Positions 17,362 to 62,661 of a stretch of 64,000 nt of DNA are shown here, in pieces. Under the pieces are notes generated by a model. It was not told the origin of the DNA. It searched no databases and saw only the letters and a program-made list of their open reading frames with translations. Location: assembly GCA_934746515.1 (NCBI GenBank), contig CAKVFH010000002.1, positions 1,576 through 65,575 on the forward strand. Direction: 5' to 3'. Position numbers and translations under genes: made by a program. The DNA is from an uncultured Clostridia bacterium (GTDB lineage Bacteria; Bacillota; Clostridia; Christensenellales; UBA1242). Numbering within the stretch: the stretch's first letter is position 1; the number at the start of each line of letters is the position of its first letter.

Positions 17362-17372
17362 AATCTACCTCG

Positions 17373-19466: not shown

Positions 19467-19472
19467 TTGATA

Positions 19473-22570: not shown

Positions 22571-22593
22571 TTTTTTCACACAAACACAAAATA

Positions 22594-22656
22594 AAAACAC
22601 AGACTATAAGAATCATACCTGTTTAAGGTTTTCTTAAATCTGTGTTTTATTTTTTA
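22594..22656. terminator. bidirectional compound terminator between convergent genes
   Basis: The outer stem is AAAACACAGA/TCTGTGTTTT (10 bp, perfect), with nested TAAGAA/TTCTTA and ACCT/AGGT stems. T-runs follow on both strands. Confidence 0.7.
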
Positions 22657-22674
22657 TAAAATTACTCAAATTCT

Positions 22675-28756: not shown

Positions 28757-28765
28757 AAATTCTCC

Positions 28766-29767: not shown

Positions 29768-29770
29768 CTG

Positions 29771-31195: not shown

Positions 31196-31203
31196 AAACA
31201 CTC

Positions 31204-33102: not shown

Positions 33103-33157
33103 TTTCACTCCAAACATTACAAAAACAACATCTTTTGTATTGTTTGTGTTTGGCTAT

Positions 33158-46300: not shown

Positions 46301-46426
46301 AACTCTAGTCAAAATATTATCCGCTGATAAAAGCGATGAAATAAAACTATCAGAAGCCAAAAAAGCAGATGAATTATTATTCATCAAAAAATTTGGCAAT
46401 GATATAATATGATTTAAAATATTCAT
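43394..46426 (-). CDS. 1,010-aa polytopic membrane protein, short paralogue of the adjacent giant protein (VirB6-position component, family unknown)
   Basis: Uninterrupted 3-kb ORF; the ATG follows AAGGAG. It has TM helices at aa ~100-175 and ~725-880, a Tyr/Lys/Asp-rich central domain and an A/K-rich tail. Several blocks are colinear with 46445-57514 (see findings). Confidence 0.8.
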   Translation of the reverse strand: MNILNHIISLPNFLMNNNSSAFLASDSFISSLLSADNILTRVLKAVLQLLYFACKWIMYMVDVIYFYILQLAGVSADTSIIDSANSDMTFKLLIDNKETVTTIIRNFIAIAIVLILVTAIIAIIKTQADAFKDKKAKKNPSGDVLKRVLKSFLMLVLTPLIAIVSIVASSVLLQALFNATNLSKSKSLSARVFNASASAANKYRLYAENGVRIPIKFNFTGDDKDKAINYTVQMIGNDKFPSLLYFDENETFIGNEFSDPVLADTTVEKGKYDSGVEAWRNSVYYKYYDHSNEYSETTTGAGKYKKLVTNANEYYVMSDVIGYALDTMEEYYFVTIQELLESLAANDADKFKEVVSGYNIRLLNSNSGTLFVDGVGNISYENMRKCVLGQDSLTYSYIRYVSKYTKGGTYTYTHVKDAVDEFEGAKFVVAYKNTFSDDFEKSLNGDHYKTASNEYKQADIYYFKESSSSRYKKVDLYYIYDEDRQVYKKVASYDSTKEYYYKIGDAYRKVTDTLKDKFYYRDESGNYVKIRFGYDDLYSNSIKEYYLPLAVGVGVNGNPAFTSTYIQTASIITARGLFDKSSYPTAIRRLSNGNIMFYRDDLELVSNGSVSDIGKLEEIEVEGEENGSESGEKQNVFQKVGSAISGAWNSVKKFVSGLFNPLKLVPDLQLDDSTVSTTYTNKTTSVYVLKDGKLHLSYFFADSLSSKLSSKMYGMDLNCLFDSMSINYIVLVVGSVVFFKVLVTAVFGLINRSINIFLMIMIYPLACATMPLDDEKTQKSGSYSKWMQKYLQLIFSTFGIILSLNFVFIIIPVIDKMQIFTAANLQSNKALGRIANALYNPWTILNVGNFYFEPNYLRISEYLNKILRIIFEIAAFSVIVPSGKSDSSNPTFYDAIQTVVGLGPGVLEDSPIDAVKKTLKTVTRTFNMVFFPHKALKNVAEKSKETLKKIGDNFPGSAVAKQSISKLKQIGIGVQQDAAKAALMSAIKGGGSPEEIEAKLADYKSAYNMK

Positions 46427-46444: not shown

Positions 46445-49400
46445 TTATTCAAAATTCTTTTGGAAATCTTGTTTGAATTTTTGCATCTGCTCTTTATCTT
46501 TCTTCTTTGCTTCTTGCTTCTTTTTATCTGCTTCAGCAACTGCCGCACCTGCAGCTTTTGCTGTTACTGGGTCGATACCGGCTCCTTGAAGTGCCACTTC
46601 AATTGCTTTTTGTTCAGCTTGAATTTTGATATTTTTTACTTTATCAACCATAGGATCAACAAATTTTTCTTTTGCTGCCTTTCCAACTTCATAACCCGGA
46701 ATCATGCTCAAAGCAGTTTCTTTGGCTTCTTGCATCAAACCAAGCATAGCTTTTCCGCTGACAACAGAACCAATTTGAGCCGCTGTTTTTTCAACACTAC
46801 TCTTAACCTCTTTTGCTTTATCCAAGAACTTTCTGCTTCCTTCGCCAAGACCTGGGTCTGGAGATGAAAGGTTTCCATGGTTTGCCGTGATGATTGGTAA
46901 AATCAACTTTGGCATTCTTTCAAGAATTGAAACAGCAGTTATTACCCACAAACACCTTACAAGATTGTTGATTGTTGGATAGCTGAAGAATCCGCCAATT
47001 CCGCCAATTGAAACAATTTTGTTAAATGTTTCGACAGATACGAAAGTTTTAACACTATATATCATTGGAACAATAATCGTAAACGATGAAAATCCTATGA
47101 TATATCCAAACACACCCAGAAGCACACTTTCGATGTTTTTCTTCCAGTTTGTGTATGTTTTATTTTTTCCGTCAGGATACAACGAATTGGTAGATATAAC
47201 AAGTGGACTGGCGATAAACAAGACAATAAGATCAAATATTCTCGTCACAACACCACCCAAAGCATTTATCATAACAGGAATAATTGTGACGAATGCTAAC
47301 ATCAATAGAACCCATGTCTGTCCGCCAAACAAATAAAAGTATGAGAAATCATCAAGCACGTCAATTGCACCGAACTCATCTGATTGAAGCATTAAATATT
47401 CAACTTTCGATTGCACAAAATTTGTGTTTACATCTGACTTAACAATGGTTTTTAAATTTGTTTTGCCAGTGTAAGTTGTGGCAGAACCAATACCCTTTGT
47501 ATAAGATGTTCCGCTGACATATTTTGTGTAATTTTTAGTTGTAATCCTGCTAACAGCCTTTGAAGCATCAATAAGGTCTTCACCTGAACCAAAGTTTCCG
47601 CCAACATTTGTTCTGTAATATGTAACAGCATTGTATGTTTCAGATGAGCTTCCAATCAATCTCTTTTGTTCAATAACCAAAGGATTGTTATATTTTCTAA
47701 TTGCCGTTGGATAGCCATCGGCAGTTATAACACCTTTCATAACAACAACATAACCACCAGTATCGTAATAATCGGTTACAAAAGGTTTGCTATCATAAAT
47801 TTTTTCTAAATATTCATCATATTTGTCTGATGAATATCTGTATGAGCCTGAACCTATCAAAGGATAATATAACCCATTTTTATAGGTGCAGACTATGAAC
47901 GAGTCACCATACGCTTCATCGTAATAATCACCCGTTCTAGTTCCTGAATATTGTCTCGTTAGCACTTCTCTAGTTGGTCTGTTTTCAAGCCCAGACAGTT
48001 TTTTAACAACTTCCAAAGTGTTGTCTGACAATGTAAATACTGCTTTCAAATCACCAGTTCCAGCATAATTTTCAACCTGCGACTTATCACCATTATTTGA
48101 ATTGTAAATCTTCACAATTTCCTGATAAGTAAGTGAATTATCTGCATTTCTTGTGATGTTTGCTTTTGGAATAATTCTTCCAACTTCTTTTCCATCTGAA
48201 GAAAAGTCAATTTGAAGCCCTATAAGATTGAAAAGTGCCATATATCTAGCAGATCTTTCTTCTGGTGTTTCTGAAGTGTTTTGTTCATTATCAATAAGTT
48301 TTTGAAGAACAATTCGTTTGAAGTCTTCATAGGTTATGTCTTCAAGTTCTTCTGCATCGACTTCGTTTGAGAATAAGTAAAGTGCCACAGCAACAAACTT
48401 GTCATGGACATTGTCTTTTCCGTCAATCAAGCGATTAACAATATTCGAGTCGATTTGTGATGCCATTATTGAATATAGCATCTCTTCTATGCTTGAAGCA
48501 GTTATTGTTGCACCAGTCGAGTCAATAAAACTGCAAGAAATAGCATCAGAAATCTTTACAGCATTAACCTTTCCTGTGTCAAGATCACCAAGATTTGTCA
48601 TGAAATAAATTTCAGCTGTTTCATCAGCAATCTTTGAAAGGAATCTGCGAAGTTCTGGCCAAGTGTCTAGGTTTGTCTTTAAAACCTTGTCAACATTGTC
48701 ATAAACTTTTGATGCTTTCACAATGCCTTCAAATTCGGCTGTTGTGTATTGAGCACCAACACCAACTTTTTCAAGGAATGCTCCACCATAAACATATTCT
48801 GCAAGTCTTGATGGATCTGTGTTACTTTTGAAAGTGTAATTTTTGTTTCTAACACTAAAACTATAGCCACTTGAAACATAGTTTGCACCAAATTGCGCCA
48901 AGGTGAAAGTGATGCTTCTCTTGTACATTTGGTCAATTCTTCTTTGTGCAGTGATATATTGGTTAATATTATATTTCAAATCTTGGAATGCAGATAAAAT
49001 TGCATCAAGCTGTGTATCTGAATAATAATGAGAAGTATCACCAATTTGTCTGTCACAACCATTGTCGGTAGTTTCACCTGGAAGAGTAAACCTGATTGCC
49101 TGAAGCTCGCCAATTATTGAATCAAGTCTTTCACTAAATTCAAGAATTTTTGCCCATGATGTTTCAGTGCTTAAGTCTGCAGGAAGAAGCTTGTCTATAA
49201 CATCTTTCAAAATATCAACGATTTGGAAAGATGAATCTTCAGAGAAAGACATTCTGAAATATATTGATACACTATTATCTTTAATGAAATCCAAGTCCGC
49301 TGTAAGTGATGCATTATTATCAAACAAATCATAAGCATTTACAATTGGAAGAATACCATTATCTCTAATAGAATCACCTATACTATCTTTAAAAGTATTT

Positions 49401-52400
49401 ATTTTATCTAAAATCTCAAGAAGAGATTTTAACTTCCCAACGATACCTTCGTTATTATTATCACTGAGAGCAATTCCTGGAAGATATAATCTAACAGTTG
49501 TTGCAAATGACAAGCCTTTGTAAAGAACTAATTTTGCTTTATCCATACCTGCAGTTTCATAGTATTGATCTGCGGTGTCAATATTCTCACCCTTTAAAAT
49601 ATTCCATCTTGAAATATTTCCGTCAATATAACTTTTATATTGGCTCAAATAAATTGGTTCACCTCTTCTGCCGAGTTCATATTTAATCTCCCAATAAACA
49701 TGAATCATGTAACAGAAAATATACTCTTTGCCTGCATAAGATTCAACTTCTTGTGATTCAGAATCTATAACCTTTCCACTTTCAGAAATTGTGTAGCCAT
49801 TATTATAAATATCTTTATAGTCATTATCCATTGCTTCAATAACTTCTTTTAAAGTCAATGTATAATATAAACTACTTGAAACCACAGTGTCATAATTATA
49901 TCCAAGCTTATCGCCTGCAGTGGTTTTATCTTTATATTTGCTGTAAGCCTTTTTAAAATTAAATGTAAAAGTTGGCTGATTATTTCCGCAATATTCGTTC
50001 TCATATCGAACAAGCTGTTCAAATGTTGCATATTCAAACGAATCAATTGTGTTACCTTCTTCATCTTTAAGGTTGTTTACATAGCTATAGTATGAAGCAT
50101 AGTCACCAACCGCGCTTGCAAGATATTCACCAATTGTGTATTCTGAATAAACTCTTGTTGCAACGGTGTAAAGATACTCGCCGATATCAGATCCCAACAA
50201 TAGTGTTGCGAGATATGATTTGTATGCGCAAAGTCTTAAACTGTTAGAACCAATGTCTTCACCAAATTCTGTTGCAAAGTCATCAATAATTGGTGCAAAG
50301 CATGAATTGAAATAATCCATGAATACTTCAGCTTCAAAAACCAAAGCATTGTAACATTCTTCACCCATGAGCGATAACATCAAAGCTCTGATTGTGTTTT
50401 TATCAAACACTGAACTATATTCATAGTTTGCATAAGAGTCTGAAACTTCAGTTGCAACTGACATAAAGAATTCTGAGAGAACCAAGCCAGCGGCTGTTGT
50501 ATTTGAAGAATTTTGTCCTGAAATATACAAGCCGTTTGTGTAAGCTGATGTAAATTCACCAAGTGTATCAAGCCAGCCATCTGTTGCGAGAAGCACTCCC
50601 CAGTTGAGATCTGGATAGTAAATTTGCATATCATTCATGAGTTTTTCAACCCAAGAAACAGTTTTTATAAGTGTTTTTACTGAATATTTACCAAATCTTG
50701 AAACATTGATTCTAAAGTTTGCATCAGCGACATTTGTGTCAATATATTTAAAATAAATAACATCACCAATTTGATAAGAAATGTTGTTTTTATCTCTAGT
50801 CACTTGCATAGATCCAACATAAGTTGGATTTAGTGATAAATCTAATGTCTCATAAAGCGCTCTAAAATCGTATTTATTGATGTTTGCATCACTTGCTGTA
50901 ACAAGCCCATTCAATGTTTTTGTTGGATCAACAGTGTCAGCCAAAGTCGTTTTGAGATCTTCATATTTGGTGGCATTCATTTTAGTAGTCTTTCCAACAT
51001 AAACATCGCCATTCTTCTCAACTATGCCAGAAATATTATAAAAATTATAGTTGATATACAAATAAATTTTATCACCATCAATATAGATGTCGTTAATATA
51101 GTAGTCATCCGTCATCAACTCTTCAAAAGACATACCTTTAAACTTGTTGTGTCTGATTCCTTCTCTTGAATATTCATAAACCATGATATAGTCTAGAACT
51201 GTCCAATTTGAAATATCTTTTAGTTTGAAGTCTTCAGATGAAAATCTCAAGTTTAGAGTACCACGCTCAAGAGATGATTCACCGGTTTTTATAGCTTCGC
51301 TAACAGTTTGTGGAACATTCATAAGACCAGAATCTTTCAAAATTTCTGAATTAAGGTTAAAGTAGAAATAGTTGTCAAATTCAAGGTCTGGGAACACTTG
51401 ACTATATTCAAGTTTCATAACAAGTGTGTTTGCAGGAGCTCCCGGATTGGTTGTACTTATTGCAATATCAAGTTCATTGACTTTTGTTGTTGTCAAATAA
51501 CCCTTTAAAAACTTGTCATAGAACTCAAAGAACTTGTTATAATTGAAATAAGAACCAGTTTTGCCAGTATCAATTGCGCTAAAATCAATAACCTTTTGTA
51601 TTGTTGTGCTTCCAGAAGTTTCATCTTCTTTATATAAATAATAAGTTCTAGCTGGCACACCACCGGCATTTGCAAAAGTTTGGAAATTTGTAGCTGTAAA
51701 TGTTGTTTTTAAAACATCAGTTCCGCTAATAAGAGAAGCTTTGTCTATCCAAGACCTAGTTTTAATCTCTTCAATCTTCTCACTCATTGTCTCATTTGTT
51801 AAAATTTCATCAATTTCAAGCGACTCAATCTGCATTTTCATAAAATTTAAAGCCACTTCATCTGAAATACAAATTACCTTATTTGTTTCTACTAAACCAG
51901 TTGTGTCAATCATTTCCAAATAATAATTTTTGGTTGCTTCTGAACCAGCAGTCGGATAGATGACATTAAATTTATAAGAACTTTTTGCAGAAGTTAAATA
52001 TTTATATTGAGTTACGCCATCAACAGTTTCCGTTCCATAAAATTTACTAAGAATAACATCCATATATGTTAATCCATAGTAGTTATCGCCTTCTTTTGAA
52101 AATTTTGGAACATATACAAATGGGAACGAAATTTTAAACTCACTATTACCAAAGTAGCCATTTGAGAATGCGTAATAAATAATATAGTCTGAAACTTTCC
52201 ATGTTGTGTAATCACTAACATCAAAAGCATCCGAGAAATCAACTTTCTGGAGTGCTCCACTTGTTGCTTTCCTTAAATTTTCATTTTCAAAAGTATCAAT
52301 ACCATCCGATATGGTTACATTTCCAATCAATTTACGTTGAACAGCACATGGTTTTATGGTTGTCAAGGCATACATAAGTTTAATAACACTTGTATCGACG

Positions 52401-55400
52401 ATTTCACCTTTGTTGTTAGAAACGCCTTTAAATACATTTTTAAAATCGCCTGAAACTGGAATCATAACATAAGTTTCATTGAATTTTACATAGTATCTTC
52501 CCTGGTAAACATAAACAACACTTGCAATATATGAACCAAGGGTTGTGCCGGTTGTGTATGAAACAACAAAATCAATTATGTTCCAACTTCCAGACTGCGA
52601 AATTGGCAATGTTTTTTTCTCAAATATTGACGCCCTATTTAAATCTGTGATTTGGTCGACATCATAAATTGGATTGCCATCAACATAATGCGGAGTTTCA
52701 GCAACTTTTAAATACCAAAGCGTGTTAGATGCAACATTTGCATCTGGCAACCCAAACACGCCATAGTTCTTATTTTCTGAACTACTATACATGTTGTAGA
52801 TAATGTAGCCTTTACCACTATCATCTTTAATCTTAGTTAGTTCATAAACTCCCATGCAACTATAGCCTTTTGAAGCAATAATTGAAGATAGTGGAGAGCC
52901 CGAAACTATGCTTATAGCAGCTGTATATGTGAATAGTTGTTTTTCAAAAAGATTAAAATCACTAGGAATAATATAGGTTTCATCCACACCTTCAAAAACA
53001 TAATAGCTTGAGCCATCTGCATAATATTGATAAACATATTGATTGTTACGATTTGGGTCAATATATGCGCTAAATAAACCCATGAGTGTCCAATTTCTAT
53101 AAGTATTAGATAAGTCAGCAAGTTGTTCTACATAACTTGTTACATCAGTCTTAAAAGTTGAAAATGAACCGGTAGCGCTAATGTCAAGAGAACTATTGCT
53201 AAAATATTTTGGAGTGTTAAACTTATCAACAGTGGCATCCAAAACATTAAGGTTAAACAGTCTCCACATCATTTTTTCATATTCAGCATTAGCGAGTGTT
53301 GCGCCTGTAACATTTCCACTTGTATAAATTAACGAGACATTTACAAGACCATCCAAAATGATATACTTGTTACTTTCTTCATCATAAAGATAAAATTTTC
53401 CATTTCTATCTTCCAACAACTTACAATCGGAAATATCAGCAACTCCGAGTTGTTTTAAAATAATTTCAATTCCAGTCCAAGATGAATATGCTTCAAAATC
53501 CATATCACTAGGAGCATTTATTGCGATTGAAGAATACTCATTTTTAACACTTGGCATAGAATCTCTAACGAATGTGTCTTTATAGTAAAGATTATAAAGC
53601 AAATCAACATATTCTTCTTTTGAGAACTGACCTGTTGAAACAGAATTTGCCGCAAGTGTCTCATCATAAAACAAAATTGTATCGTTAATCTTAATATATT
53701 TTGTATTATCACCTTTAAACTTATAGATTGTATAGGTTTGTGATTGTGATGAGTTAAGAATTGAATAAAGAAGTGCATCAAATTGATTTACCGTTCCACC
53801 AAATGAAGAATACTCGCCATCTTTAGCAAATATAGAAGCTTGTTTTGAAATTAGTGAATTGGTTTCAAAATAAATCAAAGCGCTAGTTCTTGAAGAAATA
53901 CCAAGGTATAATCCGTCTTTCAATTTAATATAAGTTTCACCATTTTGGCTGTATGCGTCAAACAAATAATATCCATCACTTGTCATTGGCACATTGTTTT
54001 TAACCAAAACCATGTCAAGATCTGAATAGATTGTGTTTATAGAAAAATTCGCATTTCCACTACCCTTCAAATTTGTTGAATAATAGTAAAACTTACCAAG
54101 CGATGTTTCATCAGTAAGTGAATCTGCTGTGCTATTTGCGAAGTTGTTGTTATAGTAAATATTAAAATTGTTAAGCGTTGAAAAACTTCTTGAATTCTTG
54201 GCAAAAAGTCGATTTGTTAAAAGCTTTCCGCTATCAGTTAAACATTGTTTTAACCCTACACTAGAAATATCAACAAAATAGTCACCCACTTCCATATAGA
54301 TATTTGTGCTATTGAAAAGGCGTGTTTTATATGGATTTTCTGTTGTTGGAAGAGTTCCAGTAAGCTCAAAAATAATAAGGTCAAGATATCTCCATGTCGA
54401 CAAATCATTTGCGTTGATTTCAGGGTTTGAGTAGGTGTAATCAAGCATTGTTATGTCATTTTTAACTGCTTCTTTCTTGAGAATTTCACGAGCCAAAGCA
54501 TATTGAATGCTCTTTATGTTTGTATAATCTCCATTCATGCTATAAATGTAAGCATCCGGATTAGAAACAACACCGCCCGCAAAATCATTTTCATTAAACT
54601 CAATGTCTGAAGGGTCAAGTCCATACATTTGAACCAAAATATATGACATTAAATTTGTATTAAACCATTTTTCAACAGTATACCCCAACTCCGAAATTTG
54701 TGATTCATCAAGATAAAATGCATTGCCGTCTCCAAATCTTCCGAAGCGATAATATCTTTTGCCGTCAACTTCGTAAATAACTGAAGAATAGCCTTGCAAT
54801 TCAATCATGCCAATGTCTATGTTGATAATTCCATTGCTTGTGAGATAAATCATCAAATAATCGCCAATAGTCCAAGTTCTTGCATTGTAAGCATCAAAAG
54901 TTTCAGACAAATAGAAAACCTTTGTTGAAACAGCACTATTTATCAGCCTGTCTGTGTCAAGATTTTCCGTGTAGTTTGAAACAAGATCAACACCTGAAAG
55001 ACCAAGATTCATATTATCAAACAAATCTGGTGAAATGGTTGAAGTGATTTTAAGTTCAGATGTTTTGCTAAACTCTTCAAGGTCAAGATAATATGTTGTT
55101 GTCCCAACCTTGATAGACATGTAGTATTTTCCACCACTTGAAACTCCAATATCACCCGAAAGCCCAAACACACGAAGCGAATCTGTGGTTATTGTGTTTC
55201 CTGTTGTTCCAGAAATTTTAGTGATATAAAGATACATCAAAGCATAGTCTCTAAATGTCCATGTGTCGCTGTTATAAAAAGAAAAATCTTCAGATAACTT
55301 TGTATTCATTTTTGAATATTTCTGATAGTATGCATTTGTTTCTTTAATTTGGGTAAATGCAGCAGGTTCCGCAGTTGTAAACAAACTTCCAAGATTTCCA

Positions 55401-57514
55401 ATTCCATATTGAGCTTGATTTTCGGCTGATAGTTTATAAGAAAAATATCTTTCTCTCGCACTCGTTGTTGGGATTAAAAATGTACCATTATCTGTATTGC
55501 CTGAACCAAAGCCAGCAAAAGCATAATATGTGCCATTGATATAAATGTAATTAACACCATTGATTTTGTAAACTTCAAAATCTACACCACTGACAAAATC
55601 GGTGAATTTGTTTGTTCTTCTGAGTCCGTTTGAAAGTGAAAGATCCTTGAAATATTCATAAATCAAAACTTGTGATGTGAATCCCCAAGTATCCGAATTA
55701 TTCAAGTCAAAAGTTTTGCTATCTCTACCAGTTAATTTTAAGTTTTTGGTACCATTCTTTTGGATTGTCAAAACTGTGTTTGTGAAATAGTTAACTTCTG
55801 GATCTATTACGTCCAAAACAAAGTATGCATGACCATAATCATCAAAATATTCAGTTGATTCTTTTAGTCTATAATATGTTCCATTGAGTTTAACACAATA
55901 AAGTGTGTGCTCTTCTGAATAGGTCTTTGTGTTTGAATTATAATTTCTATAAGTCATTTCCAAAGCGTCAAGTTTTGCACCATATTTTTGCAAATCTTCA
56001 AGAGTATAATCTTCCAATGTGTTGTTTGTTGAACCAAAGGCATTTTGGAAGCGATAATATTCATAAACAATGATTTGGTCTGAATATGTCCAAGTGGTTG
56101 AATCATCAAGTCTGAAACCACTCAATCTGTTCCAGTTGTTATCATAAACAGTTGAAAGTTTCAAAAAGGCTTTTCTGGTTGCCCAAGAAACAAGATTTGT
56201 GAAATCACCTGAATCATCTCTTTCCATTTCATTAAATTTTGATGTTTCACCATTAACGCCCAAAAGTGTTGAAGCGGTTTTAAGAGCATCAGAAATTGGT
56301 GAAGTTAAGTCAAGTTTTGTTGTTAAACTTAAAGAATAAGAGTCATCTGTTAAATCTGCCGCATTTGTTGTGAGTGAAGGACTGTTTACAATTTCAGCAT
56401 TGCGATATTTGATGTTCAATGAAATATCTGAAAGTGCATTTCCGTCATTATCTATCTGTGCAGAGATATTATCAACATACTTCCAGCAGATATCTGGTTC
56501 TGACATTGCTTTGACATAATATTTGATATTATATCTTTGACAATAGTCAACAAAATCAGCCAAAACATAGTATTGTTCTCTCGTGCAGATAAAATTTTCA
56601 AAATAATCACCAAGATCTTCATAAACTGTGTTATTTATAGTGAGAGAATAGTTTTTGTAACTCTCCCATGTTCCACCAGAGTTTGTTGTTGATTTCTCAA
56701 AAGGCAAGAAACTATCGTTTGCAAAAGCACCACCGATAGCTTTTAAAATTTCTTGAGTTTTTGGGTCTTGAATTGATTTTTTGATTTCTTCATCGCTGCG
56801 AGAAGCACCAAACGCGTTCTCCATTGAATAAACATTGATTGTTATTGGAATACGCTTGTTTGCATTTGCATAAGCTCTGTATCTATTTGCATCATAAGTT
56901 GATGCTGCAAGCACATTTCCAGCAATTGTTGTGTCGCTGTAATTTCCTATCGCACGATAAAATGATGTTAAAATTGCATTAGTTCCAACAATCAGTGTGT
57001 AGAAAATAAGTGGCATTAAGAAAATTGTGACAATATTTCTTAATAAAATTTTGATTAGTTTTCCCTTTTGGTTATCGGCTTTTTGATAGCCATTTGTTGC
57101 AAGCTTATATTCTTGCATAACCATAGAAATTATTGTAAATACAATCATCAAAATGATTGCAACACCGAAAACTGCTCTGAAAATTTTTAACAAATAATCA
57201 TAATAATTTGATCCGTTTGTTGTGATAGATTTCAGACCATCAATATATTCTCCAAGCGATGTGCTTGTGTTTGTTTTTAAATCTAGTCCTAAAAGTCTTG
57301 TGAATGCAAGTTGCATTGCATCAATAATGCCTAAAACCCATTTAGTAACATACCAAATATACTTTGTAATAAAATTCCACACAACACCAAATACATTCAT
57401 AAATGTATTTGCAATTGTTCTGCCAATCATCTTAAGCCAAACCAAAGGCCAAGACGCATCAGCAACAAAATTTGCAGCACTATTTGTTAGGAATTTGCTT
57501 ACAAAATTTAACAT
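46445..57514 (-). CDS. 3,689-aa giant polytopic membrane protein with tandem Trp/Tyr-signature modules (VirB6-position component, family unknown)
   Basis: Uninterrupted 11,070-nt ORF in AT-rich DNA; across the same span the other frames give only 60-135-aa fragments. The ATG follows AAGGAGAA. It has TM helices at aa ~110-180 and ~3398-3535, an ectodomain of about 3,200 aa and an A/K-rich C-terminal tail. Confidence 0.85.
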   Translation of the reverse strand: MLNFVSKFLTNSAANFVADASWPLVWLKMIGRTIANTFMNVFGVVWNFITKYIWYVTKWVLGIIDAMQLAFTRLLGLDLKTNTSTSLGEYIDGLKSITTNGSNYYDYLLKIFRAVFGVAIILMIVFTIISMVMQEYKLATNGYQKADNQKGKLIKILLRNIVTIFLMPLIFYTLIVGTNAILTSFYRAIGNYSDTTIAGNVLAASTYDANRYRAYANANKRIPITINVYSMENAFGASRSDEEIKKSIQDPKTQEILKAIGGAFANDSFLPFEKSTTNSGGTWESYKNYSLTINNTVYEDLGDYFENFICTREQYYVLADFVDYCQRYNIKYYVKAMSEPDICWKYVDNISAQIDNDGNALSDISLNIKYRNAEIVNSPSLTTNAADLTDDSYSLSLTTKLDLTSPISDALKTASTLLGVNGETSKFNEMERDDSGDFTNLVSWATRKAFLKLSTVYDNNWNRLSGFRLDDSTTWTYSDQIIVYEYYRFQNAFGSTNNTLEDYTLEDLQKYGAKLDALEMTYRNYNSNTKTYSEEHTLYCVKLNGTYYRLKESTEYFDDYGHAYFVLDVIDPEVNYFTNTVLTIQKNGTKNLKLTGRDSKTFDLNNSDTWGFTSQVLIYEYFKDLSLSNGLRRTNKFTDFVSGVDFEVYKINGVNYIYINGTYYAFAGFGSGNTDNGTFLIPTTSARERYFSYKLSAENQAQYGIGNLGSLFTTAEPAAFTQIKETNAYYQKYSKMNTKLSEDFSFYNSDTWTFRDYALMYLYITKISGTTGNTITTDSLRVFGLSGDIGVSSGGKYYMSIKVGTTTYYLDLEEFSKTSELKITSTISPDLFDNMNLGLSGVDLVSNYTENLDTDRLINSAVSTKVFYLSETFDAYNARTWTIGDYLMIYLTSNGIINIDIGMIELQGYSSVIYEVDGKRYYRFGRFGDGNAFYLDESQISELGYTVEKWFNTNLMSYILVQMYGLDPSDIEFNENDFAGGVVSNPDAYIYSMNGDYTNIKSIQYALAREILKKEAVKNDITMLDYTYSNPEINANDLSTWRYLDLIIFELTGTLPTTENPYKTRLFNSTNIYMEVGDYFVDISSVGLKQCLTDSGKLLTNRLFAKNSRSFSTLNNFNIYYNNNFANSTADSLTDETSLGKFYYYSTNLKGSGNANFSINTIYSDLDMVLVKNNVPMTSDGYYLFDAYSQNGETYIKLKDGLYLGISSRTSALIYFETNSLISKQASIFAKDGEYSSFGGTVNQFDALLYSILNSSQSQTYTIYKFKGDNTKYIKINDTILFYDETLAANSVSTGQFSKEEYVDLLYNLYYKDTFVRDSMPSVKNEYSSIAINAPSDMDFEAYSSWTGIEIILKQLGVADISDCKLLEDRNGKFYLYDEESNKYIILDGLVNVSLIYTSGNVTGATLANAEYEKMMWRLFNLNVLDATVDKFNTPKYFSNSSLDISATGSFSTFKTDVTSYVEQLADLSNTYRNWTLMGLFSAYIDPNRNNQYVYQYYADGSSYYVFEGVDETYIIPSDFNLFEKQLFTYTAAISIVSGSPLSSIIASKGYSCMGVYELTKIKDDSGKGYIIYNMYSSSENKNYGVFGLPDANVASNTLWYLKVAETPHYVDGNPIYDVDQITDLNRASIFEKKTLPISQSGSWNIIDFVVSYTTGTTLGSYIASVVYVYQGRYYVKFNETYVMIPVSGDFKNVFKGVSNNKGEIVDTSVIKLMYALTTIKPCAVQRKLIGNVTISDGIDTFENENLRKATSGALQKVDFSDAFDVSDYTTWKVSDYIIYYAFSNGYFGNSEFKISFPFVYVPKFSKEGDNYYGLTYMDVILSKFYGTETVDGVTQYKYLTSAKSSYKFNVIYPTAGSEATKNYYLEMIDTTGLVETNKVICISDEVALNFMKMQIESLEIDEILTNETMSEKIEEIKTRSWIDKASLISGTDVLKTTFTATNFQTFANAGGVPARTYYLYKEDETSGSTTIQKVIDFSAIDTGKTGSYFNYNKFFEFYDKFLKGYLTTTKVNELDIAISTTNPGAPANTLVMKLEYSQVFPDLEFDNYFYFNLNSEILKDSGLMNVPQTVSEAIKTGESSLERGTLNLRFSSEDFKLKDISNWTVLDYIMVYEYSREGIRHNKFKGMSFEELMTDDYYINDIYIDGDKIYLYINYNFYNISGIVEKNGDVYVGKTTKMNATKYEDLKTTLADTVDPTKTLNGLVTASDANINKYDFRALYETLDLSLNPTYVGSMQVTRDKNNISYQIGDVIYFKYIDTNVADANFRINVSRFGKYSVKTLIKTVSWVEKLMNDMQIYYPDLNWGVLLATDGWLDTLGEFTSAYTNGLYISGQNSSNTTAAGLVLSEFFMSVATEVSDSYANYEYSSVFDKNTIRALMLSLMGEECYNALVFEAEVFMDYFNSCFAPIIDDFATEFGEDIGSNSLRLCAYKSYLATLLLGSDIGEYLYTVATRVYSEYTIGEYLASAVGDYASYYSYVNNLKDEEGNTIDSFEYATFEQLVRYENEYCGNNQPTFTFNFKKAYSKYKDKTTAGDKLGYNYDTVVSSSLYYTLTLKEVIEAMDNDYKDIYNNGYTISESGKVIDSESQEVESYAGKEYIFCYMIHVYWEIKYELGRRGEPIYLSQYKSYIDGNISRWNILKGENIDTADQYYETAGMDKAKLVLYKGLSFATTVRLYLPGIALSDNNNEGIVGKLKSLLEILDKINTFKDSIGDSIRDNGILPIVNAYDLFDNNASLTADLDFIKDNSVSIYFRMSFSEDSSFQIVDILKDVIDKLLPADLSTETSWAKILEFSERLDSIIGELQAIRFTLPGETTDNGCDRQIGDTSHYYSDTQLDAILSAFQDLKYNINQYITAQRRIDQMYKRSITFTLAQFGANYVSSGYSFSVRNKNYTFKSNTDPSRLAEYVYGGAFLEKVGVGAQYTTAEFEGIVKASKVYDNVDKVLKTNLDTWPELRRFLSKIADETAEIYFMTNLGDLDTGKVNAVKISDAISCSFIDSTGATITASSIEEMLYSIMASQIDSNIVNRLIDGKDNVHDKFVAVALYLFSNEVDAEELEDITYEDFKRIVLQKLIDNEQNTSETPEERSARYMALFNLIGLQIDFSSDGKEVGRIIPKANITRNADNSLTYQEIVKIYNSNNGDKSQVENYAGTGDLKAVFTLSDNTLEVVKKLSGLENRPTREVLTRQYSGTRTGDYYDEAYGDSFIVCTYKNGLYYPLIGSGSYRYSSDKYDEYLEKIYDSKPFVTDYYDTGGYVVVMKGVITADGYPTAIRKYNNPLVIEQKRLIGSSSETYNAVTYYRTNVGGNFGSGEDLIDASKAVSRITTKNYTKYVSGTSYTKGIGSATTYTGKTNLKTIVKSDVNTNFVQSKVEYLMLQSDEFGAIDVLDDFSYFYLFGGQTWVLLMLAFVTIIPVMINALGGVVTRIFDLIVLFIASPLVISTNSLYPDGKNKTYTNWKKNIESVLLGVFGYIIGFSSFTIIVPMIYSVKTFVSVETFNKIVSIGGIGGFFSYPTINNLVRCLWVITAVSILERMPKLILPIITANHGNLSSPDPGLGEGSRKFLDKAKEVKSSVEKTAAQIGSVVSGKAMLGLMQEAKETALSMIPGYEVGKAAKEKFVDPMVDKVKNIKIQAEQKAIEVALQGAGIDPVTAKAAGAAVAEADKKKQEAKKKDKEQMQKFKQDFQKNFE
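51155..56107 (-). repeat. protein-level tandem module array inside the giant ORF
   Basis: About 10 copies of a [D/N][S/T]xTW-x3-DY-hh-Y-hY signature occur every ~130-170 aa, each followed by a G-x-YY / YYxh strand-like motif. The Trp codons have upper coordinates 56092, 55687, 55261, 54874, 54394, 53479, 53092, 52585, 52201 and 51205. Confidence 0.7.
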
Positions 57515-57537: not shown

Positions 57538-60228
57538 TTATTTTGCGTCGTCTCTGAGTTTTTCGAATAAGTTTCTAACTCTGTCGTTAACCAAGACATC
57601 GACATTTGTTCTTGAGTAAGGACTTGTCATCAAGAACGCCCTACCACGAGGGTTTGTACAAATTGTGTCTTGCTCTTTTTCGTTGATTTTTCCGGCTTTT
57701 TCATAAAGAACAACCAAGTCGGTGATATCTTGTGGAGCAAGTGAGAAGATGAGTGAATATTGACAAGCATTGATAATAGCCATTGATTTTCTTGCAATTT
57801 CAGGCGAACCAGTAAAGTCTTTGATGTTCTGTGTGATAACAATTTGAGAACCTTCATATTTTCTGATACGTTTTGCCATTTGTTGCATGAAGTCAAGAGC
57901 AACGGTTTTTCTAGGATCGATGAATACATGGGCTTCATCGATAACTACAATAACTTTTCTTTTTGTGTGGAATCTCGCGTTGTAATCCTTGTTATTGATA
58001 ACTTCGTTGTTAAGCCAACGCATAACCAAAAGCATTTGCGCATTTGCAACAGCGCCGGCATTATTTGCAAGAAGTGATTGGAAGTTAAACACGATGAAGT
58101 TTTCTGCTGAAGAAATTGTTGATGGACCATTCCAAAGAACCGCGTTTCTTCCGCCTTCAGCAAATTTATTAAGATAGATTTTCAAAATCTTATAGTTGTT
58201 TCTGTTATAATCATCTGTTGAGTTTTCATAAAGCTCACAAATGTAGTTGTAAAGGTCTTGCATGATTGGGAACTGCTCTGGCTTTACATTTTCAATTTGA
58301 GTTGAATTTGTGATACCAAACTTACCATAAAGCTCTTTTAATGCTTCATTCAAAAGTTCCATGCCGTCCATTGTAATACCATCAAGAATCATTCCGAAGA
58401 ATGTTTCCAAGAACTGCATGTGCATAGCAAGAGCAACATTACCGCCACCTGCTTCTTCATCGTCTTGAGAAGCATTAACTTGAAGTGGATTGATACGACC
58501 TTCACGAGCAGAACCTACATCAATAACTTTTCCGTACATATTTTTAGCAATGATGTCATATTCTTTTTCAGGGTCGAGAATGAAGATTTTACTGTTATCA
58601 GCAGCAAGGTTTGCAAGGATTGATTTGGTACAGAATGATTTACCGCAACCAGATTTACCCATGATAACCATGTTTGAATTGATACGCTCTTTGTCTCTTT
58701 GGAAGAAATCCAAAAATACTGGTTCAGAGTTCATACCAACATAGAAGCCTTTAGGGTCTTGAATAGCATCTGAAACAAATGGGAAAATTGCTGCAAGTGA
58801 TGAAGAATTCAAACCTCTTTCAAAACGACGAAGTTTCATACGTCTTGAAACATTGCAGTTTGTGAAACCTTCTTTTTGTTTTCCGAAAAGGTCGTAGCAT
58901 CTAAAACCTGCACGAAGAACTTGTGTTCTAAATGCTTTCTTTTGTTCTTGTTCAACCATCATATAGATGTTTGTATCCAAAAGCATTTCTGAACCTTGCT
59001 TAATATAGGTTAAAAGCTCTGTCAAAGTTTTTAAGTGGGTTTCATTTTCCAAAACCGCAGAAGCCTTTGCACTGCCTTCAGAACCCGCCATTCTAACATT
59101 GATGATAGCCTTATCCAAACGCTTTTCAGCTTCATCTTGACCAACTGGTTTAAACTTAACGCAAACTTTGGCGCCAGGAACAGAGAAGAATGCTCTTCCC
59201 CAAGCATTTGGAACAGACAATGGATATTCAGAAAGTTGGAATACTGTTTGCGCTTTTCCATCAATTGAAAGTCTGTTTAAACCAAAGGTAACTTTGTCTG
59301 GAGCAACCCAGTCCAAAAGTTCTTTTGGATCAAGTTTTTTAACATCTCTTTCATCAAAATTCGAATTATAAAAACTCTTTAAGAAAATTGCTGTTTGGTT
59401 TCTGTCAAGAATTTTTGGTTCAATTGCACCGCCAGAACCACTTTCAATTGTGCTTGCTGCAAAGTTTACAACTTGCAAAAGGTTTTTAATGTTTTGACAG
59501 AAGAACGCAATATACATGTGGTCTTTGATAACAGGAAATTCACTGTCAACATTCATTTGCTCAAGGTTTTGAATTCTGGCTTCAGCGATTTCAAGTCTTG
59601 GTCTAGCTTCGTTAATGTTTGTTGAACCATTTCTAACTGAATCAAGAATTTCTTCTCTCTTTTTGCATTCGTTGTCAATGTAGTTATCAAAAACCATAGG
59701 TCTTGAAAATTTGTAAATTGCACCAAGTTCATCTGTGCCGATTGTCTTGAATGCATTTTCCAAAGTTTCAATATATGAATTTTGTCTGGTTTCAGAAATC
59801 AAATAAAACTGGATTGAGTTAAGTTCGATTGCTGCACCAAAATATTCTTTGTAATCAATAATACCGATTTTTCTCTTTTCGTCGTAATCTTGTTCCAAGA
59901 TGCCAATGTATGGGAAAAGTGCTTTTACGTCTTTGTTTGAGCCAGAAGATTTTTTCATTCTTTTGTAGGTGTTTATACCAAAGAAATATTTAAACAAATC
60001 ACCCACTTGATTATACATTTTTACGCCTGGTTCAAAACTCATAAAAAGAATACCAAAAACAAGACCAGTGACACCAGTTAGTACAAGTTTTGTTACAGTC
60101 GAAAAACCACTTGTCCAAGCAAGTGCAAGAATAATAAGTGCGAATAAAATGACAAAAATGTCTCCAAAATTCAAACCCTTAATAAACTCAACTTTAACTT
60201 TAGTTGACTTAGGTATCATTCTCTCCAT
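57538..60228 (-). CDS. VirB4/TraE-like T4SS ATPase with N-terminal VirB3-like membrane hairpin
   Basis: 896 aa from the ATG at 60228, 9 nt after AGGAGAA (the ORF-track start at 60306 is TTG). It has two TM helices near the N-terminus, Walker A GKSGCGKS (58636-58659), ILDPEKEY and Walker B VIVVIDEAH (57928-57954), then ..QIVITQNIKDF. Size and motif order fit VirB4-class members of the FtsK/HerA superfamily. Confidence 0.75.
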   Translation of the reverse strand: MERMIPKSTKVKVEFIKGLNFGDIFVILFALIILALAWTSGFSTVTKLVLTGVTGLVFGILFMSFEPGVKMYNQVGDLFKYFFGINTYKRMKKSSGSNKDVKALFPYIGILEQDYDEKRKIGIIDYKEYFGAAIELNSIQFYLISETRQNSYIETLENAFKTIGTDELGAIYKFSRPMVFDNYIDNECKKREEILDSVRNGSTNINEARPRLEIAEARIQNLEQMNVDSEFPVIKDHMYIAFFCQNIKNLLQVVNFAASTIESGSGGAIEPKILDRNQTAIFLKSFYNSNFDERDVKKLDPKELLDWVAPDKVTFGLNRLSIDGKAQTVFQLSEYPLSVPNAWGRAFFSVPGAKVCVKFKPVGQDEAEKRLDKAIINVRMAGSEGSAKASAVLENETHLKTLTELLTYIKQGSEMLLDTNIYMMVEQEQKKAFRTQVLRAGFRCYDLFGKQKEGFTNCNVSRRMKLRRFERGLNSSSLAAIFPFVSDAIQDPKGFYVGMNSEPVFLDFFQRDKERINSNMVIMGKSGCGKSFCTKSILANLAADNSKIFILDPEKEYDIIAKNMYGKVIDVGSAREGRINPLQVNASQDDEEAGGGNVALAMHMQFLETFFGMILDGITMDGMELLNEALKELYGKFGITNSTQIENVKPEQFPIMQDLYNYICELYENSTDDYNRNNYKILKIYLNKFAEGGRNAVLWNGPSTISSAENFIVFNFQSLLANNAGAVANAQMLLVMRWLNNEVINNKDYNARFHTKRKVIVVIDEAHVFIDPRKTVALDFMQQMAKRIRKYEGSQIVITQNIKDFTGSPEIARKSMAIINACQYSLIFSLAPQDITDLVVLYEKAGKINEKEQDTICTNPRGRAFLMTSPYSRTNVDVLVNDRVRNLFEKLRDDAK

Positions 60229-60315
60229 AAATGTAAATTCTCCTATATATAATAGTATATAACTTTCGCGTTTTTCAAGCAAATATATACTTGCATTTTG
60301 TGACAAAAATATGCT

Positions 60316-62661
60316 TTATTTTTTATTTTTTGCCAGTGTTACATCACCAATTTCGACATTCATTGATTTTAATTTTTTAATTAAATCACTTTCAATTTTT
60401 GTGAGTCTTTGATTATATTTTTCAAGTTCATTTATAATCGCTTCTTCATACGATTTTGCAGGGCCTTCCATTTGAGATTTAAAGAATTTTTGAGTCTTCT
60501 TTAAGTCACGAATATTCGAACCAAAATCATCTTCAAGTTTGTCTTCAAGTTTTGCAATATAATCGATAATCTCTGTGCAATTTGTGCCAGCAAAAGTAGC
60601 TTTCATATTTTGAACTTGGTTTTTAAAATTCATAATGAAAGAAGCAACAATCTTTTCAATTTGTTTTCCTTCAATTGTGCCCTTTTCAATGTAATAAACT
60701 TCACCAAAAGCATCAACAGCAGGAAATGCGTATTTGTCAAGCACACTCTTTGAAGTGTTGAATGAAACTGCTTTGCTGGACTCTGAAGTGATTGCCTTGC
60801 TGATTTGCTGTGAAGCAAAATTATTTTCAAACGAAACCTTTCTTTGCATCGCGCTGTCAAGGGACGATTTGATAATTGCCATCTTTTTATTGTGCGAGTT
60901 GATGTCTTTGATAATCTTCTGCATTTGATTGTTATTTTCGTAAGAATAAGGCTTGCTTGTATAAGATTCAAGGTTTTCGCTGAGCTTATCCACAACAGAT
61001 TTTTCATAGATATATTTTGCATTCAATTCTTTCACTGACTGCAAAATTCGTTTGTATAATTCACCCTGCTCTTGACCTAAAGTGTCAACCACATTTTTAA
61101 TTTCTCTTGAAGCGATTTTTTCATCACGATCAATCAATATGCCACTGAGTCTTTCAAGTTTTTCTGTTCCAAGCGAGAAAAATTTGTTTCTATGCACAGT
61201 TTCTTCAAGTTTTTCAATGCGATCTGCAATAAACTTTTTAAGTTCGCTTTTCTTTGAACTTTCGGATTTTTTATCAAAATTTTTCTTATCTTTTTGAATG
61301 TATTCTGTGAACTCTTTTTGCAGATTAGAGTTTAAACTTTCAAATATACTTTCATAACCAATCAAATCTTCACGAAGCGATATGTTTTTAAGTTCTCTGT
61401 CGTATTCTTTAACCTTCATCGCGTCAAGATTTTTCTCTGTTTGAGTTTTTGCATTTGTTAATTGCTTGCCCAAAAATCCAGTGCAAACAGAAACTGACGC
61501 TGGAATATAAAATGAACGATATCTTAATCTAAAATTCACCTTTCTGAGTTCTTCATCAAATTGTTTTTCAATTTCATGTTCTTGCACAGAAATTGGGCTT
61601 GAAGAAAGATTTTGACTTCTAAAAGAAAGTGCGTTGCTAACCTTTTGATTATAAAGCTTGTCTGCGATTTCTGGGAAATTTTGTTCAAATTCAATGGCAA
61701 ATTGTCTGCCATTGCCCTTATAAAACTTAACGAAATTGTCAAATTTTTCACGCATAACATTTAGTTCAATTAGTCTAGCCTTATTCTTTTCGTCTCTTGA
61801 TTCGTCAGTCTTTGTTTTTGAGAATAATTCACTCCCCTTAACGAGTTTCATTTTATTCATTTGAAGACCTGAAGCACTTACAACTGACTTAACTGTTGTG
61901 AACTTTTTTGATCCGTTTCTATATGAAGTTTGATTGTTTAAGAAACCATATTTTTCCAAATATGTTTCCATTTTTTGTTTACTGTCTTGCCTAACCTTTG
62001 TTTCAGCAACTCTTTGAAGTTTATCAAGTTTTTCAGCAAACATTTTAATTCTAATTTTTATTAAAGCTTTCTTTTGATCATCTGTTAAATTTTGAAACTT
62101 GAATTGATCGCCAATAACATTGCCGTTTTTGTCAAGCTGTCTATCGTACTCTTTTAAAAAGTATTTGTTAGACATTCTGTCAAGATTGATACTTGCAATT
62201 TTGCTGAAATAGGTTTCAATAAAATTGTTAAAATTAGGTCCAAATTCAATCCTGTCGTTTCTAATAGCTTTTGTTGAATTATATCTTTCAATTTGTGCTT
62301 CAATTTCTTCCAGATTTTTCTTATGAAGTTCTTTAAATTTTTCAGGAATAGTTCTTTTAAAAGTGTCTCTTTCCAAAGGTATTGAAGAAAGAGAGCCAAC
62401 ATCTCTTAAAAATGATACAACTATATTTTTATTTTTTGGATAACTAACCATAGTGTAGTCATTCAAAACTACACTATAGTTATCCAATTCTTTTAAAGCT
62501 TGTTTTTTCAGCTGTTCCTGTCTTTTTTGATAGGCTTTCTTTTCTTCTTCAGACATTTGTTCGTAGTTTTTTGGCAGCTTAAAATCAATGACTTGCCTAC
62601 TCAGCTCATCAATTTGTTTTTTTAGCTGTTTAATTTCTTCTAAAATTTCTTCATTTTCCAT
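60316..62661 (-). CDS. 781-aa soluble K/E-rich, coiled-coil-looking protein
   Basis: Uninterrupted ORF; the ATG follows GGAGAT. There is no TM segment or signal peptide, but there are long heptad-like K/E/L/I stretches. I recognise no enzymatic motif. Confidence 0.7.
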   Translation of the reverse strand: MENEEILEEIKQLKKQIDELSRQVIDFKLPKNYEQMSEEEKKAYQKRQEQLKKQALKELDNYSVVLNDYTMVSYPKNKNIVVSFLRDVGSLSSIPLERDTFKRTIPEKFKELHKKNLEEIEAQIERYNSTKAIRNDRIEFGPNFNNFIETYFSKIASINLDRMSNKYFLKEYDRQLDKNGNVIGDQFKFQNLTDDQKKALIKIRIKMFAEKLDKLQRVAETKVRQDSKQKMETYLEKYGFLNNQTSYRNGSKKFTTVKSVVSASGLQMNKMKLVKGSELFSKTKTDESRDEKNKARLIELNVMREKFDNFVKFYKGNGRQFAIEFEQNFPEIADKLYNQKVSNALSFRSQNLSSSPISVQEHEIEKQFDEELRKVNFRLRYRSFYIPASVSVCTGFLGKQLTNAKTQTEKNLDAMKVKEYDRELKNISLREDLIGYESIFESLNSNLQKEFTEYIQKDKKNFDKKSESSKKSELKKFIADRIEKLEETVHRNKFFSLGTEKLERLSGILIDRDEKIASREIKNVVDTLGQEQGELYKRILQSVKELNAKYIYEKSVVDKLSENLESYTSKPYSYENNNQMQKIIKDINSHNKKMAIIKSSLDSAMQRKVSFENNFASQQISKAITSESSKAVSFNTSKSVLDKYAFPAVDAFGEVYYIEKGTIEGKQIEKIVASFIMNFKNQVQNMKATFAGTNCTEIIDYIAKLEDKLEDDFGSNIRDLKKTQKFFKSQMEGPAKSYEEAIINELEKYNQRLTKIESDLIKKLKSMNVEIGDVTLAKNKK

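Follow-up and report, generated by a model that had tools for sequence, protein, structure and literature searches.

An apparently undescribed repeat domain in a giant, putatively VirB6-like protein of uncultured Clostridia

A 64,000-nucleotide stretch of DNA from an uncultured Clostridia bacterium (assembly GCA_934746515.1, contig CAKVFH010000002.1, positions 1,576 to 65,575; the whole stretch is called the window here) contains an open reading frame (ORF) of 3689 amino acids (aa) at 46445-57514 on the reverse strand, in which a tryptophan-marked signature, TW-x3-DY-hh-Y-hY, recurs. An earlier reading of this ORF (the giant in what follows), made from the sequence letters and called the original prediction here, took the signature to mark about ten tandem modules of a novel domain. 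Specifically, the locus raises the question of whether such motifs are indeed copies of a single domain and, if they are, how old the copies may be and what kind of protein holds them.

Copies of one diverged domain

The ten sites are diverged copies of one domain of ~135 residues. All 16 strings quoted in the original prediction (ten Trp signatures and six G-x-Y-Y motifs) stand at the positions given for them, which correspond to aa 470-2120 of the giant. The signature Trp residues are aa 475, 610, 752, 881, 1041, 1346, 1475, 1644, 1772 and 2104, and the distances between them (135, 142, 129, 160, 305, 129, 169, 128 and 332 aa) reproduce exactly the spacing of 128-169 aa, with two gaps of 305 and 332 aa, that had been described. 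The array as now delimited is slightly wider (aa ~451-2210, window 50885-56164) and makes up about 48% of the length of the giant. It begins with five copies in tandem (aa ~451-1165), continues with three that have decayed (aa ~1332-1743) and ends with another two (aa ~1749-2210).

Self-BLAST of the whole giant returns the identity match only and no internal repeats. In pairwise Smith-Waterman comparisons against shuffles, the copies at W475, W610, W752, W881, W1772 and W2104 reach z values of 3.5-9.5 in 14 of their 15 pairs (the W475-W881 pair has a z of only 1.4), and the other four (W1041, W1346, W1475 and W1644) are without significance. A hidden Markov model (HMM) built from the six significant copies recovers, in all 16 orthologous giants fetched, six copies in equivalent places, and iteration extended the profile to 108 and later to 337 copies. 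Against an independent profile of these 337, from which the window protein was left out, the same six copies score 44-70 bits and the W1041 copy 12.4 bits, with shuffled-protein controls at 2-7 bits at most, and sequence-profile search of the window protein detects none of the W1346, W1475 and W1644 sites. Profile-profile comparison (hhalign; the module profile against the alignment of orthologous giants) gives as its ten best matches the ten sites of the original prediction, with E values from 5e-21 for the best to 2.4e-3 for W1346, and its eleventh match has an E of 0.6. The weak sites also align positionally with module copies of 22-26 bits in the orthologues of loci L021, L006 and L012. 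For the W1475 site the core motif can be placed in two registers, either at aa 1451-1473 or at W1475 as first proposed. Judged by profile and profile-profile comparison, seven copies are solid and three are decayed and probably real.

A rival explanation denies that there is a repeated domain at all: in a low-GC protein rich in Tyr, Asn and Thr, chance or a biased composition could bring the signature up again and again. Three of the ten sites are indeed individually insignificant in the window protein. The tests refute this explanation, to which we attach almost no probability: the six copies far exceed the 7 bits that shuffles reach at most, a strict motif pattern has zero matches when run on some 60 further large ORFs of the loci compared, among them paralogous giants of >3300 aa, and the copy positions are conserved in about 40 orthologues.

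The modules are as follows (bit scores against the independent profile, unless stated otherwise):

55754..56164, reverse strand, aa 451-587: module 1 (W475), 61.8 bits, hhalign probability 99.4
55334..55753, reverse strand, aa 588-727: module 2 (W610), 57.8 bits, hhalign probability 99.4
54932..55318, reverse strand, aa 733-861: module 3 (W752), 62.9 bits, hhalign probability 99.0
54452..54931, reverse strand, aa 862-1021: module 4 (W881), 63.4 bits, hhalign probability 99.1
54020..54439, reverse strand, aa 1026-1165: module 5 (W1041), diverged, 12.4 bits (independent E value 0.002), hhalign E 6.5e-6 on the core motif; orthologous copies at 30-33 bits in L010 and L021
53195..53521, reverse strand, aa ~1332-1440: module 6 (W1346), degenerate and probable only, hhalign E 2.4e-3, -2.9 bits by sequence-profile comparison; positional orthologues of aa 1336-1440 in L021 (1354-1478, 26 bits) and L007 (1371-1460, 11 bits)
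52823..53167, reverse strand, aa ~1450-1564: module 7 (W1475 region), degenerate and probable only, hhalign E 4.4e-4 at aa 1451-1473; positional orthologue in L006 (1489-1595, 25 bits)
52286..52609, reverse strand, aa ~1636-1743: module 8 (W1644), degenerate and probable only, hhalign E 8.6e-4 (1.6e-3 with an alignment of close relatives); positional orthologue of aa 1642-1743 in L012 (1661-1767, 22 bits)
51857..52270, reverse strand, aa 1749-1886: module 9 (W1772), 44.0 bits, hhalign probability 97.6
50885..51274, reverse strand, aa 2081-2210: module 10 (W2104), 69.6 bits, hhalign probability 99.3

The two double-length gaps had been suspected of hiding degenerate copies, and here the original prediction fails: hhalign detects no module copy in either the 305-aa or the 332-aa gap (E 0.39, a level that control regions reach as well). 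An insertion of ~120-150 aa between modules 9 and 10 (window ~51700-52100, reverse strand, aa ~1800-1950; alignment occupancy 0.15-0.38) takes up part of the 332-aa gap; it has no similarity to the module and is restricted to the window protein and the relatives closest to it. Modules 9 and 10 are spaced ~305-336 aa apart in these proteins (505 in one of them), as against ~180-210 aa in distant orthologues.

The consensus drawn from 132 copies in 22 full-length proteins begins with h-x-[LF]-S-x2-F-[DN]-x2-[DN]-x-[ST]-T-W-T-x2-D-[YQF]-[IFL]-[IL]-x-Y-[EL]-[YF] and continues, after a stretch, as N ... G-[YV] ... N-G-x-Y-Y. The signature was thus correct as first given and reaches about 11 residues farther upstream. 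Its most constant positions in the profile are Trp in column 20 (131 of the 132 copies), Asp in column 24 (129), Phe in column 12 (123), Ser in column 9 (122), Thr in column 19 (113) and Tyr in column 29 (111). The Gly-x-Tyr-Tyr motif that had been noticed downstream of the Trp is real as well, in the form NGxYY, with Tyr in column 73, 53 residues past the Trp, in 103 of the 132 copies. The final ~50 residues of the unit are without conservation.

Age and novelty of the module

The original prediction had pointed to module amplification as the way in which the gene grew. Copies at the same position are 25-38% identical between species, as against 19.8% for copies at different positions within one protein and 19.5% for those between proteins, and the nearest neighbour of every one of the 132 copies is a copy at the same position. 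Because the copies group so strictly by position, the duplications predate the whole family. At the DNA level, the comparison of modules that had been proposed for dating the duplications yields only a core of 61 nucleotides (nt) at 61-72% identity, as expected from protein conservation, and no DNA repeat beyond it; nothing points to recent amplification or to concerted evolution. The copies therefore appear to be ancient tandem duplications, each of which would since have evolved as its own positional orthologue, and amplification of modules stands as an ancient event, not as a recent one.

The module matches no described family in the resources searched. The whole giant has no Pfam family at E<=1, and no family (25 were listed) is matched by more than two of 109 single module copies at that threshold; a single copy matched Cadherin_4 at E 0.052. 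NCBIfam and PHROGs give no match on the repeat region, nor does PHROGs on the whole giant. PDB sequences compared with the module profile, the whole repeat region and the C-terminal membrane domain yield nothing significant, the best hint being 3hzb, a ‘carbohydrate binding protein’ (E 0.12, insignificant). When 1.84 billion representative proteins were searched with HMMER, using a profile of seven copies from the window only, 44 matches were found, of which 43 are colinear orthologues of the giant or fragments of them; the remaining one (P0050, E 1.6e-4) has no BLAST similarity to the giant and no module. The full-length relatives have 2900-4700 aa, are 28-48% identical over aa 1-3688 and carry 6-9 module matches at conserved positions. 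Pattern scans of IMG/VR viral contigs and JGI metagenome contigs returned no relatives, and a word-indexed protein database returned nothing for aa 440-1060 or for a 17-orthologue alignment of modules 1-4, this index evidently being without full-length giants. By these comparisons the module is a previously undescribed domain family confined to one protein family, in keeping with the novelty originally proposed and with the impression that the pattern was not that of RHS/YD, cell-wall-binding, Ig-like, cadherin or SLH repeats.

Several candidate identities were rejected: (i) the extracellular repeats already described (RHS/YD, CW_binding, SLH, Big/Ig-like, cadherin, ChW and GW), since no Pfam model matches the whole giant at E<=1 or more than two of the 109 copies, (ii) a phage tail fibre or prophage structural protein, given the lack of a PHROGs match or an IMG/VR relative and the housekeeping genes on the flanks, and (iii) the Hodor megaplasmid giants (PMC12934698), which are other proteins, with S-layer/MBG domains, sortase-anchored and located on plasmids.

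The membrane scaffold and its gene cluster

What kind of protein holds such an array? The parts of the giant that bear on this lie outside the repeat:

56885..57379, reverse strand, aa 46-210: N-terminal membrane half, matching MMCAP2_0566_fam positions 2-151 of 322 (E 4.1e-9)
46886..47374, reverse strand, aa 3381-3543: C-terminal membrane half, matching MMCAP2_0566_fam positions 187-294 and ICE_Mbov_0396_TM positions 169-290
50015..50617, reverse strand, aa 2300-2500: best-conserved part of the ectodomain, with 55-73% identity in 15 orthologues

Within the C-terminal half it is aa 3381-3506 that align to positions 187-294 of MMCAP2_0566_fam (E ~4e-9). Since both halves of this family are matched in order, each at E ~4e-9, homology is indicated, though not curated membership. 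By hydropathy the giant has 7-8 hydrophobic segments (aa ~27-71, 115-133 and 153-171 at the N-terminal end; 3402-3420, 3429-3447, 3464-3482, possibly 3491-3509, and 3513-3543 at the C-terminal end), 4-5 of them in the C-terminal half, and zero between aa 200 and 3350. A hydrophilic insertion of ~3170 aa thus lies between the membrane halves, falling between profile positions ~151 and ~187. The size of the gene is better described by this insertion than by the modules, the array being ~48% of the protein only.

Charge is distributed unevenly around the segments, with 4 Lys or Arg among the 19 residues of the loop assigned to the cytoplasmic side as against 1 in 24 after the third transmembrane (TM) segment. 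By the positive-inside rule the ~3170-aa insertion would face outward. The tail of the giant (aa 3560-3689, window 46445-46835, reverse strand) is rich in Lys, Ala and Glu, with 26 Lys or Arg in 129 residues, ends in KKKQEAKKKDKEQMQKFKQDFQKNFE and is probably cytoplasmic.

In Mycoplasma integrative and conjugative elements (ICEs), CDS16 is an eight-helix protein described as ‘likely the VirB6-like component’, and extended VirB6 proteins have large central or C-proximal hydrophilic domains whose role is stated as unknown (PMC12857230); transfer of the element ICEA requires CDS15, CDS16, CDS17 and CDS19 (PMC6030558). Mbov_0396 is taken to be CDS16, given that its locus tag adjoins that of Mbov_0397 (VirB4/CDS17). 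The giant has the features by which extended VirB6 proteins are recognized: at least five hydrophobic helices, a large hydrophilic domain and, within the cluster, a gene adjoining that of VirB4. Because both membrane halves match the CDS16-like family and VirB4 adjoins, the modules are placed in the predicted outward loop of a VirB6-like protein. The giant would therefore be best described as an extended VirB6-like protein in which the repeat array is the first half of a ~3170-aa insertion, predicted to be an outward loop. Accordingly, the array, which had been imagined as an extended stalk or fibre, would be part of a polytopic membrane protein and not a free-standing fibre protein.

Conservation within the ectodomain is uneven. 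Across the 15 orthologues the repeat region has ~15-40% identity to the window residue, as against 55-73% at aa 2300-2500; aa 2850-2950 are also among the best conserved parts of the giant, and the decayed central modules are the least conserved. The stretch at aa 2300-2500 looks helical by eye (not computed), has no family match and is a candidate functional domain. The word-indexed protein database returned six short fragments only for aa 2280-2530.

The genes of the cluster visible in the window, apart from the giant, are:

62704..64000, reverse strand: 3' part of a larger gene (listed as 423 aa), its frame open to base 64000
60316..62661, reverse strand: 781-aa protein without family match, which in related genomes makes up the C-terminal part of a second giant lying upstream
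57538..60306, reverse strand: VirB4-type ATPase of 922 aa, directly upstream of the giant (23 nt), read from a TTG start; NCBIfam VirB4_plasma 566 bits (cut-off 590) and Pfam P-loop_TraG
43394..46426, reverse strand: mini-paralogue of the giant, 1010 aa, directly downstream; MMCAP2_0566_fam 85.7 bits (cut-off 90) and Mbov_0396 family 65.2 bits (cut-off 70)

The order is operon-like, from the gene that runs off the window end through the 781-aa protein, the ATPase and the giant to the 1010-aa protein, and the gaps of 18-23 nt indicate one operon. The ATPase has two N-terminal TM segments (aa 50-92). Its 566 bits are against the Mycoplasma ICE model (the Mbov_0397 family), and it scores far lower, at 156 bits, against a Clostridioides CD1110-type model. 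The mini-paralogue has the same split membrane halves with an insert of ~500 aa only and no module matches; by BLAST, its aa 37-338 resemble aa 40-339 of the giant and its aa 728-986 resemble aa 3401-3645. Downstream of the cluster lie lspA, rluD, tig, clpP and clpX, and elsewhere in the window (4689-6212, 9326-10507, 15892-17361 and 26344-33117, reverse strand) there are spoIVA, spoIIP, ftsZ, ftsW, two Mur ligases and a penicillin-binding protein (PBP) transpeptidase. These sporulation and cell-wall genes indicate a walled, spore-forming Firmicute as the host, and the uniform GC content of the window (~32%) indicates that the cluster is compositionally native.

With the VirB4 protein as the query, 27 loci were found, all from uncultured Clostridia, sampled from sheep, goat, buffalo, deer or human (Hadza) gut or present in metagenome-assembled genomes without a named host. 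An orthologous giant follows VirB4 in 16 of the 27, and in many of the loci a second giant of >3300 aa lies upstream as well. VirB4 is intact and 77-91% identical across the 16 species-level genomes that have the giant. The ectodomain of the giant diverges fast, and far faster than VirB4: the giant is 47% identical in the closest genome, where VirB4 is 91% identical, and the corresponding figures for other genomes are ~30% and ~82%. The second giant upstream of VirB4 exceeds 3300 aa and is open at the start of the locus in L007 (1-9924), L013 (2-9886) and L017 (3-9902), and the C-terminal part of these upstream giants is a domain like the 781-aa protein, not a membrane domain. In the window and in L005, the material of the second giant is split into a 781-aa gene and a larger gene; the window's gene at 62704-64000 is 40% identical to aa 1345-1765 of a 1769-aa ORF in L005.

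Other observations concern single loci. In L019 (mouse gut) the giant is present as two overlapping ORFs of 2066 and at least 1262 aa (10163-16360 and 16303-20088), which could reflect a frameshift, a pseudogene or an assembly error. The distant relative L026, whose VirB4 is 40% identical and whose cluster has uvrA, htrA, a thyX-like gene (a weak match, below cut-off) and hflX on its flanks, has a giant ORF of >3300 aa after VirB4 (12675-22673) from which the Trp-marked module is entirely absent; giant proteins after VirB4 thus seem to be a wider habit of such systems, with differing ectodomains. In L005, the closest genome, an upstream ORF of 428 aa (1224-2507) has a weak match (E 0.006, 16 bits) to Mbov_0395, a ‘pilin-like conjugal transfer protein’, which hints that it may be a further component shared with Mycoplasma ICEs.

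Possible roles and comparison with known systems

Taken together, these data suggest an ancient module array in the outward insertion of an extended VirB6 protein, acting as a spacer or scaffold for transfer by a system like a type IV secretion system (T4SS), a joint reading to which we give an even chance of being right. The modules, whose aromatic core is invariant and whose surface varies, would together make up a semi-rigid scaffold on which the loop could cross the peptidoglycan wall and project beyond it. The first five modules, tandem units of ~135 aa each that begin ~280 residues past the last N-terminal helix, would by estimate have about the length needed to cross the wall of a Gram-positive cell. 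The distal conserved domains (aa 2300-2500 and 2850-2950) and the fast-evolving surfaces would then be exposed for contact with a partner cell, and this contact would serve a transfer process like type IV secretion.

A number of points weigh against this joint reading. The giant scores 52.9 bits for MMCAP2_0566_fam (NCBIfam cut-off 90) and 44 bits for Mbov_0396 (cut-off 70); Pfam TrbL/VirB6 has no match to it at E<=1, and NCBIfam TIGR02783 (TrbL_P) matches the N-terminal half weakly (18.5 bits, E 1e-3, cut-off 128.85). Hydropathy and charge bias are the sole basis of the topology. Neither a coupling protein (VirD4/TcpA) nor a relaxase turned up in a scan of the cluster ORFs of the window and of upstream ORFs in L005, L011 and L026, which covered the visible part of the cluster, the upstream end of which lies outside the window. 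Structure prediction with AlphaFold, from window sequences only, gave no confident structure: mean predicted local distance difference test (pLDDT) values are 44.7 for module 2 (seven-row alignment) and 42.0 for modules 3-4 (five-row alignment). At this low confidence, the two-module model has a helix over W-x3-D-Y-hh-Y in both modules, the module-2 model has a helical turn of three residues only at that place, and both have beta-hairpins around NGxYY, which hints at an alpha+beta fold and at no more than that. Such models do not establish the beta-rich character of the original prediction, and its stalk or fibre would be plausible. A Foldseek search of such a model against the PDB found nothing (best E 0.37, TM-score 0.12), and the present models would not tell a spacer from a binding module.

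Some of the same points would favour a different reading, in which the giant is a general surface or envelope protein and the neighbouring VirB4 is incidental or belongs to a decayed integrated element, so that the modules would have no part in type IV secretion: the membrane-domain scores are under the curated cut-offs, the cluster ORFs scanned contain no relaxase or coupling protein, and the locus lies amid housekeeping genes. We consider this very doubtful, since the order of VirB4 followed by the giant is kept in 16 species-level genomes with VirB4 intact, one conjugal-transfer family is matched by both scaffold halves, correctly ordered, in each of two paralogues, the short gaps indicate one operon, and a decayed element would not keep ORFs of 11 kb open across species.

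The main rival to the spacer is that the modules are ligand-binding units (for carbohydrate, peptidoglycan or the surface of a partner cell), with the conserved aromatic positions (W, Y, F and NGxYY) as the site and multivalent adhesion to the cell's own wall or to a target cell as the outcome. Tyr, Asn, Thr and Ser are abundant in the module (Y 8.9%, N 7.7%), a composition common in bacterial carbohydrate-binding repeats, and the variable C-terminal half of the module, together with the fast divergence of the ectodomain relative to VirB4 (47% as against 91%), would fit diversifying pressure. Mating by Mycoplasma ICEs, furthermore, needs the surface lipoprotein CDS14 (PMC6030558). Set against this, no Pfam carbohydrate-binding or cell-wall-binding family was matched across the 109 copies, the sole PDB hint (3hzb) is insignificant, the invariant residues have the hydrophobic and aromatic pattern typical of a folding core, and three central copies have decayed, which would be unexpected were each an active site. 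Ligand binding is thus possible, if on balance unlikely.

More speculatively, and with a low probability in our estimation, the clade may have fixed an apparently relaxase-less chromosomal T4SS of the Mycoplasma ICE type, duplicated its VirB6 (2-3 paralogues per locus) and expanded it to 3-4.7 kaa, with fast-evolving ectodomains made in part of the new domain. The outcome would be a contact-dependent device directed at other bacteria or at the host, comparable to the co-opted T4SS of Patescibacteria, and the array would be its wall-spanning arm that recognizes the partner.

To find an unannotated repeat domain in a surface protein restricted to one clade is in itself nothing unusual, and the context here is more interesting than the repeat. 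The locus offers a tractable system for how a monoderm T4SS crosses a thick wall and recognizes its partners, with the 1010-aa mini-paralogue (which lacks the large insertion) and the sharp contrast between conserved core and variable surface providing a natural comparison. The new domain family can also be used in annotating giant proteins in gut metagenomes.

At the level of the module, the closest analogues are the SLH, CW_binding_1/2, ChW and GW repeats, which are likewise marked by Trp or Tyr and found in extracellular proteins of Firmicutes. None of them is among the 25 Pfam families listed for the 109 copies, and SLH, choline- or cell-wall-binding, ChW and GW repeats have roughly 20-90 aa as against ~135 aa for the module. 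The spacing of 8 residues from Phe to Trp in the core presumably resembles the start of the SLH motif, and we take this as a lead only.

At the level of the protein, the Gram-positive VirB6-like proteins PrgH, TcpH and ConG (MPF-FATA class) of monoderm conjugation systems are polytopic membrane proteins encoded next to a VirB4 homologue, and are roughly four to five times shorter than the giant. No sequence match between them and the giant was obtained here, and we know of no repeat array in them. The PrgH profile represents VirB6 of MPF-FATA in PMC12102498. The same source describes in Patescibacteria a chromosomal, relaxase-less T4SS that derives from MPF-FATA and is proposed to have been co-opted for a non-conjugative function in cell contact; a search of that text for the term ‘large protein’ gave no giant VirB6 with the module. 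The cluster in the window is similar in being centred on VirB4, chromosomal and without a detected relaxase (in its visible part), and differs in phylum and lifestyle.

The membrane domain itself is closest to the CDS16/Mbov_0396/MMCAP2_0566 proteins of Mycoplasma ICEs, which have ~300-320 aa and 8 TM segments. Both profile halves are matched by the giant and by its 1010-aa paralogue, and the gene of the giant adjoins an Mbov_0397-type VirB4 (566 bits). The scores are nevertheless below the cut-off (52.9 and 85.7 against 90 bits), the giant has the ~3170-aa insertion, and here the host is a walled member of the Clostridia and the locus looks chromosomal; of the hallmarks of ICEs, neither a DDE transposase nor TraG/VirD4 was seen in the window.

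The architecture resembles that of the extended VirB6 paralogues of Rickettsiales, which reach up to 4322 aa (Anaplasma VirB6-4) and share with the giant at least five hydrophobic helices, a very large hydrophilic domain, a position beside VirB4 and the presence of several paralogues per cluster (PMC12857230; PMC7648143). The giant differs from these in that (i) its host is Gram-positive and spore-forming, (ii) its membrane domain is split by the hydrophilic part, which is inserted centrally and is not only a C-terminal extension, (iii) its membrane domain matches the Mycoplasma ICE family and not Pfam TrbL/VirB6 (TrbL_P at E 1e-3), and (iv) its module has no Pfam, NCBIfam or PDB-sequence match. 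The extension of VirB6 is thus found here in a Gram-positive setting, with a defined repeat architecture and about 40 orthologues, and the giant would represent a new variant of the extended-VirB6 theme, with a putative function in T4SS-like transfer.

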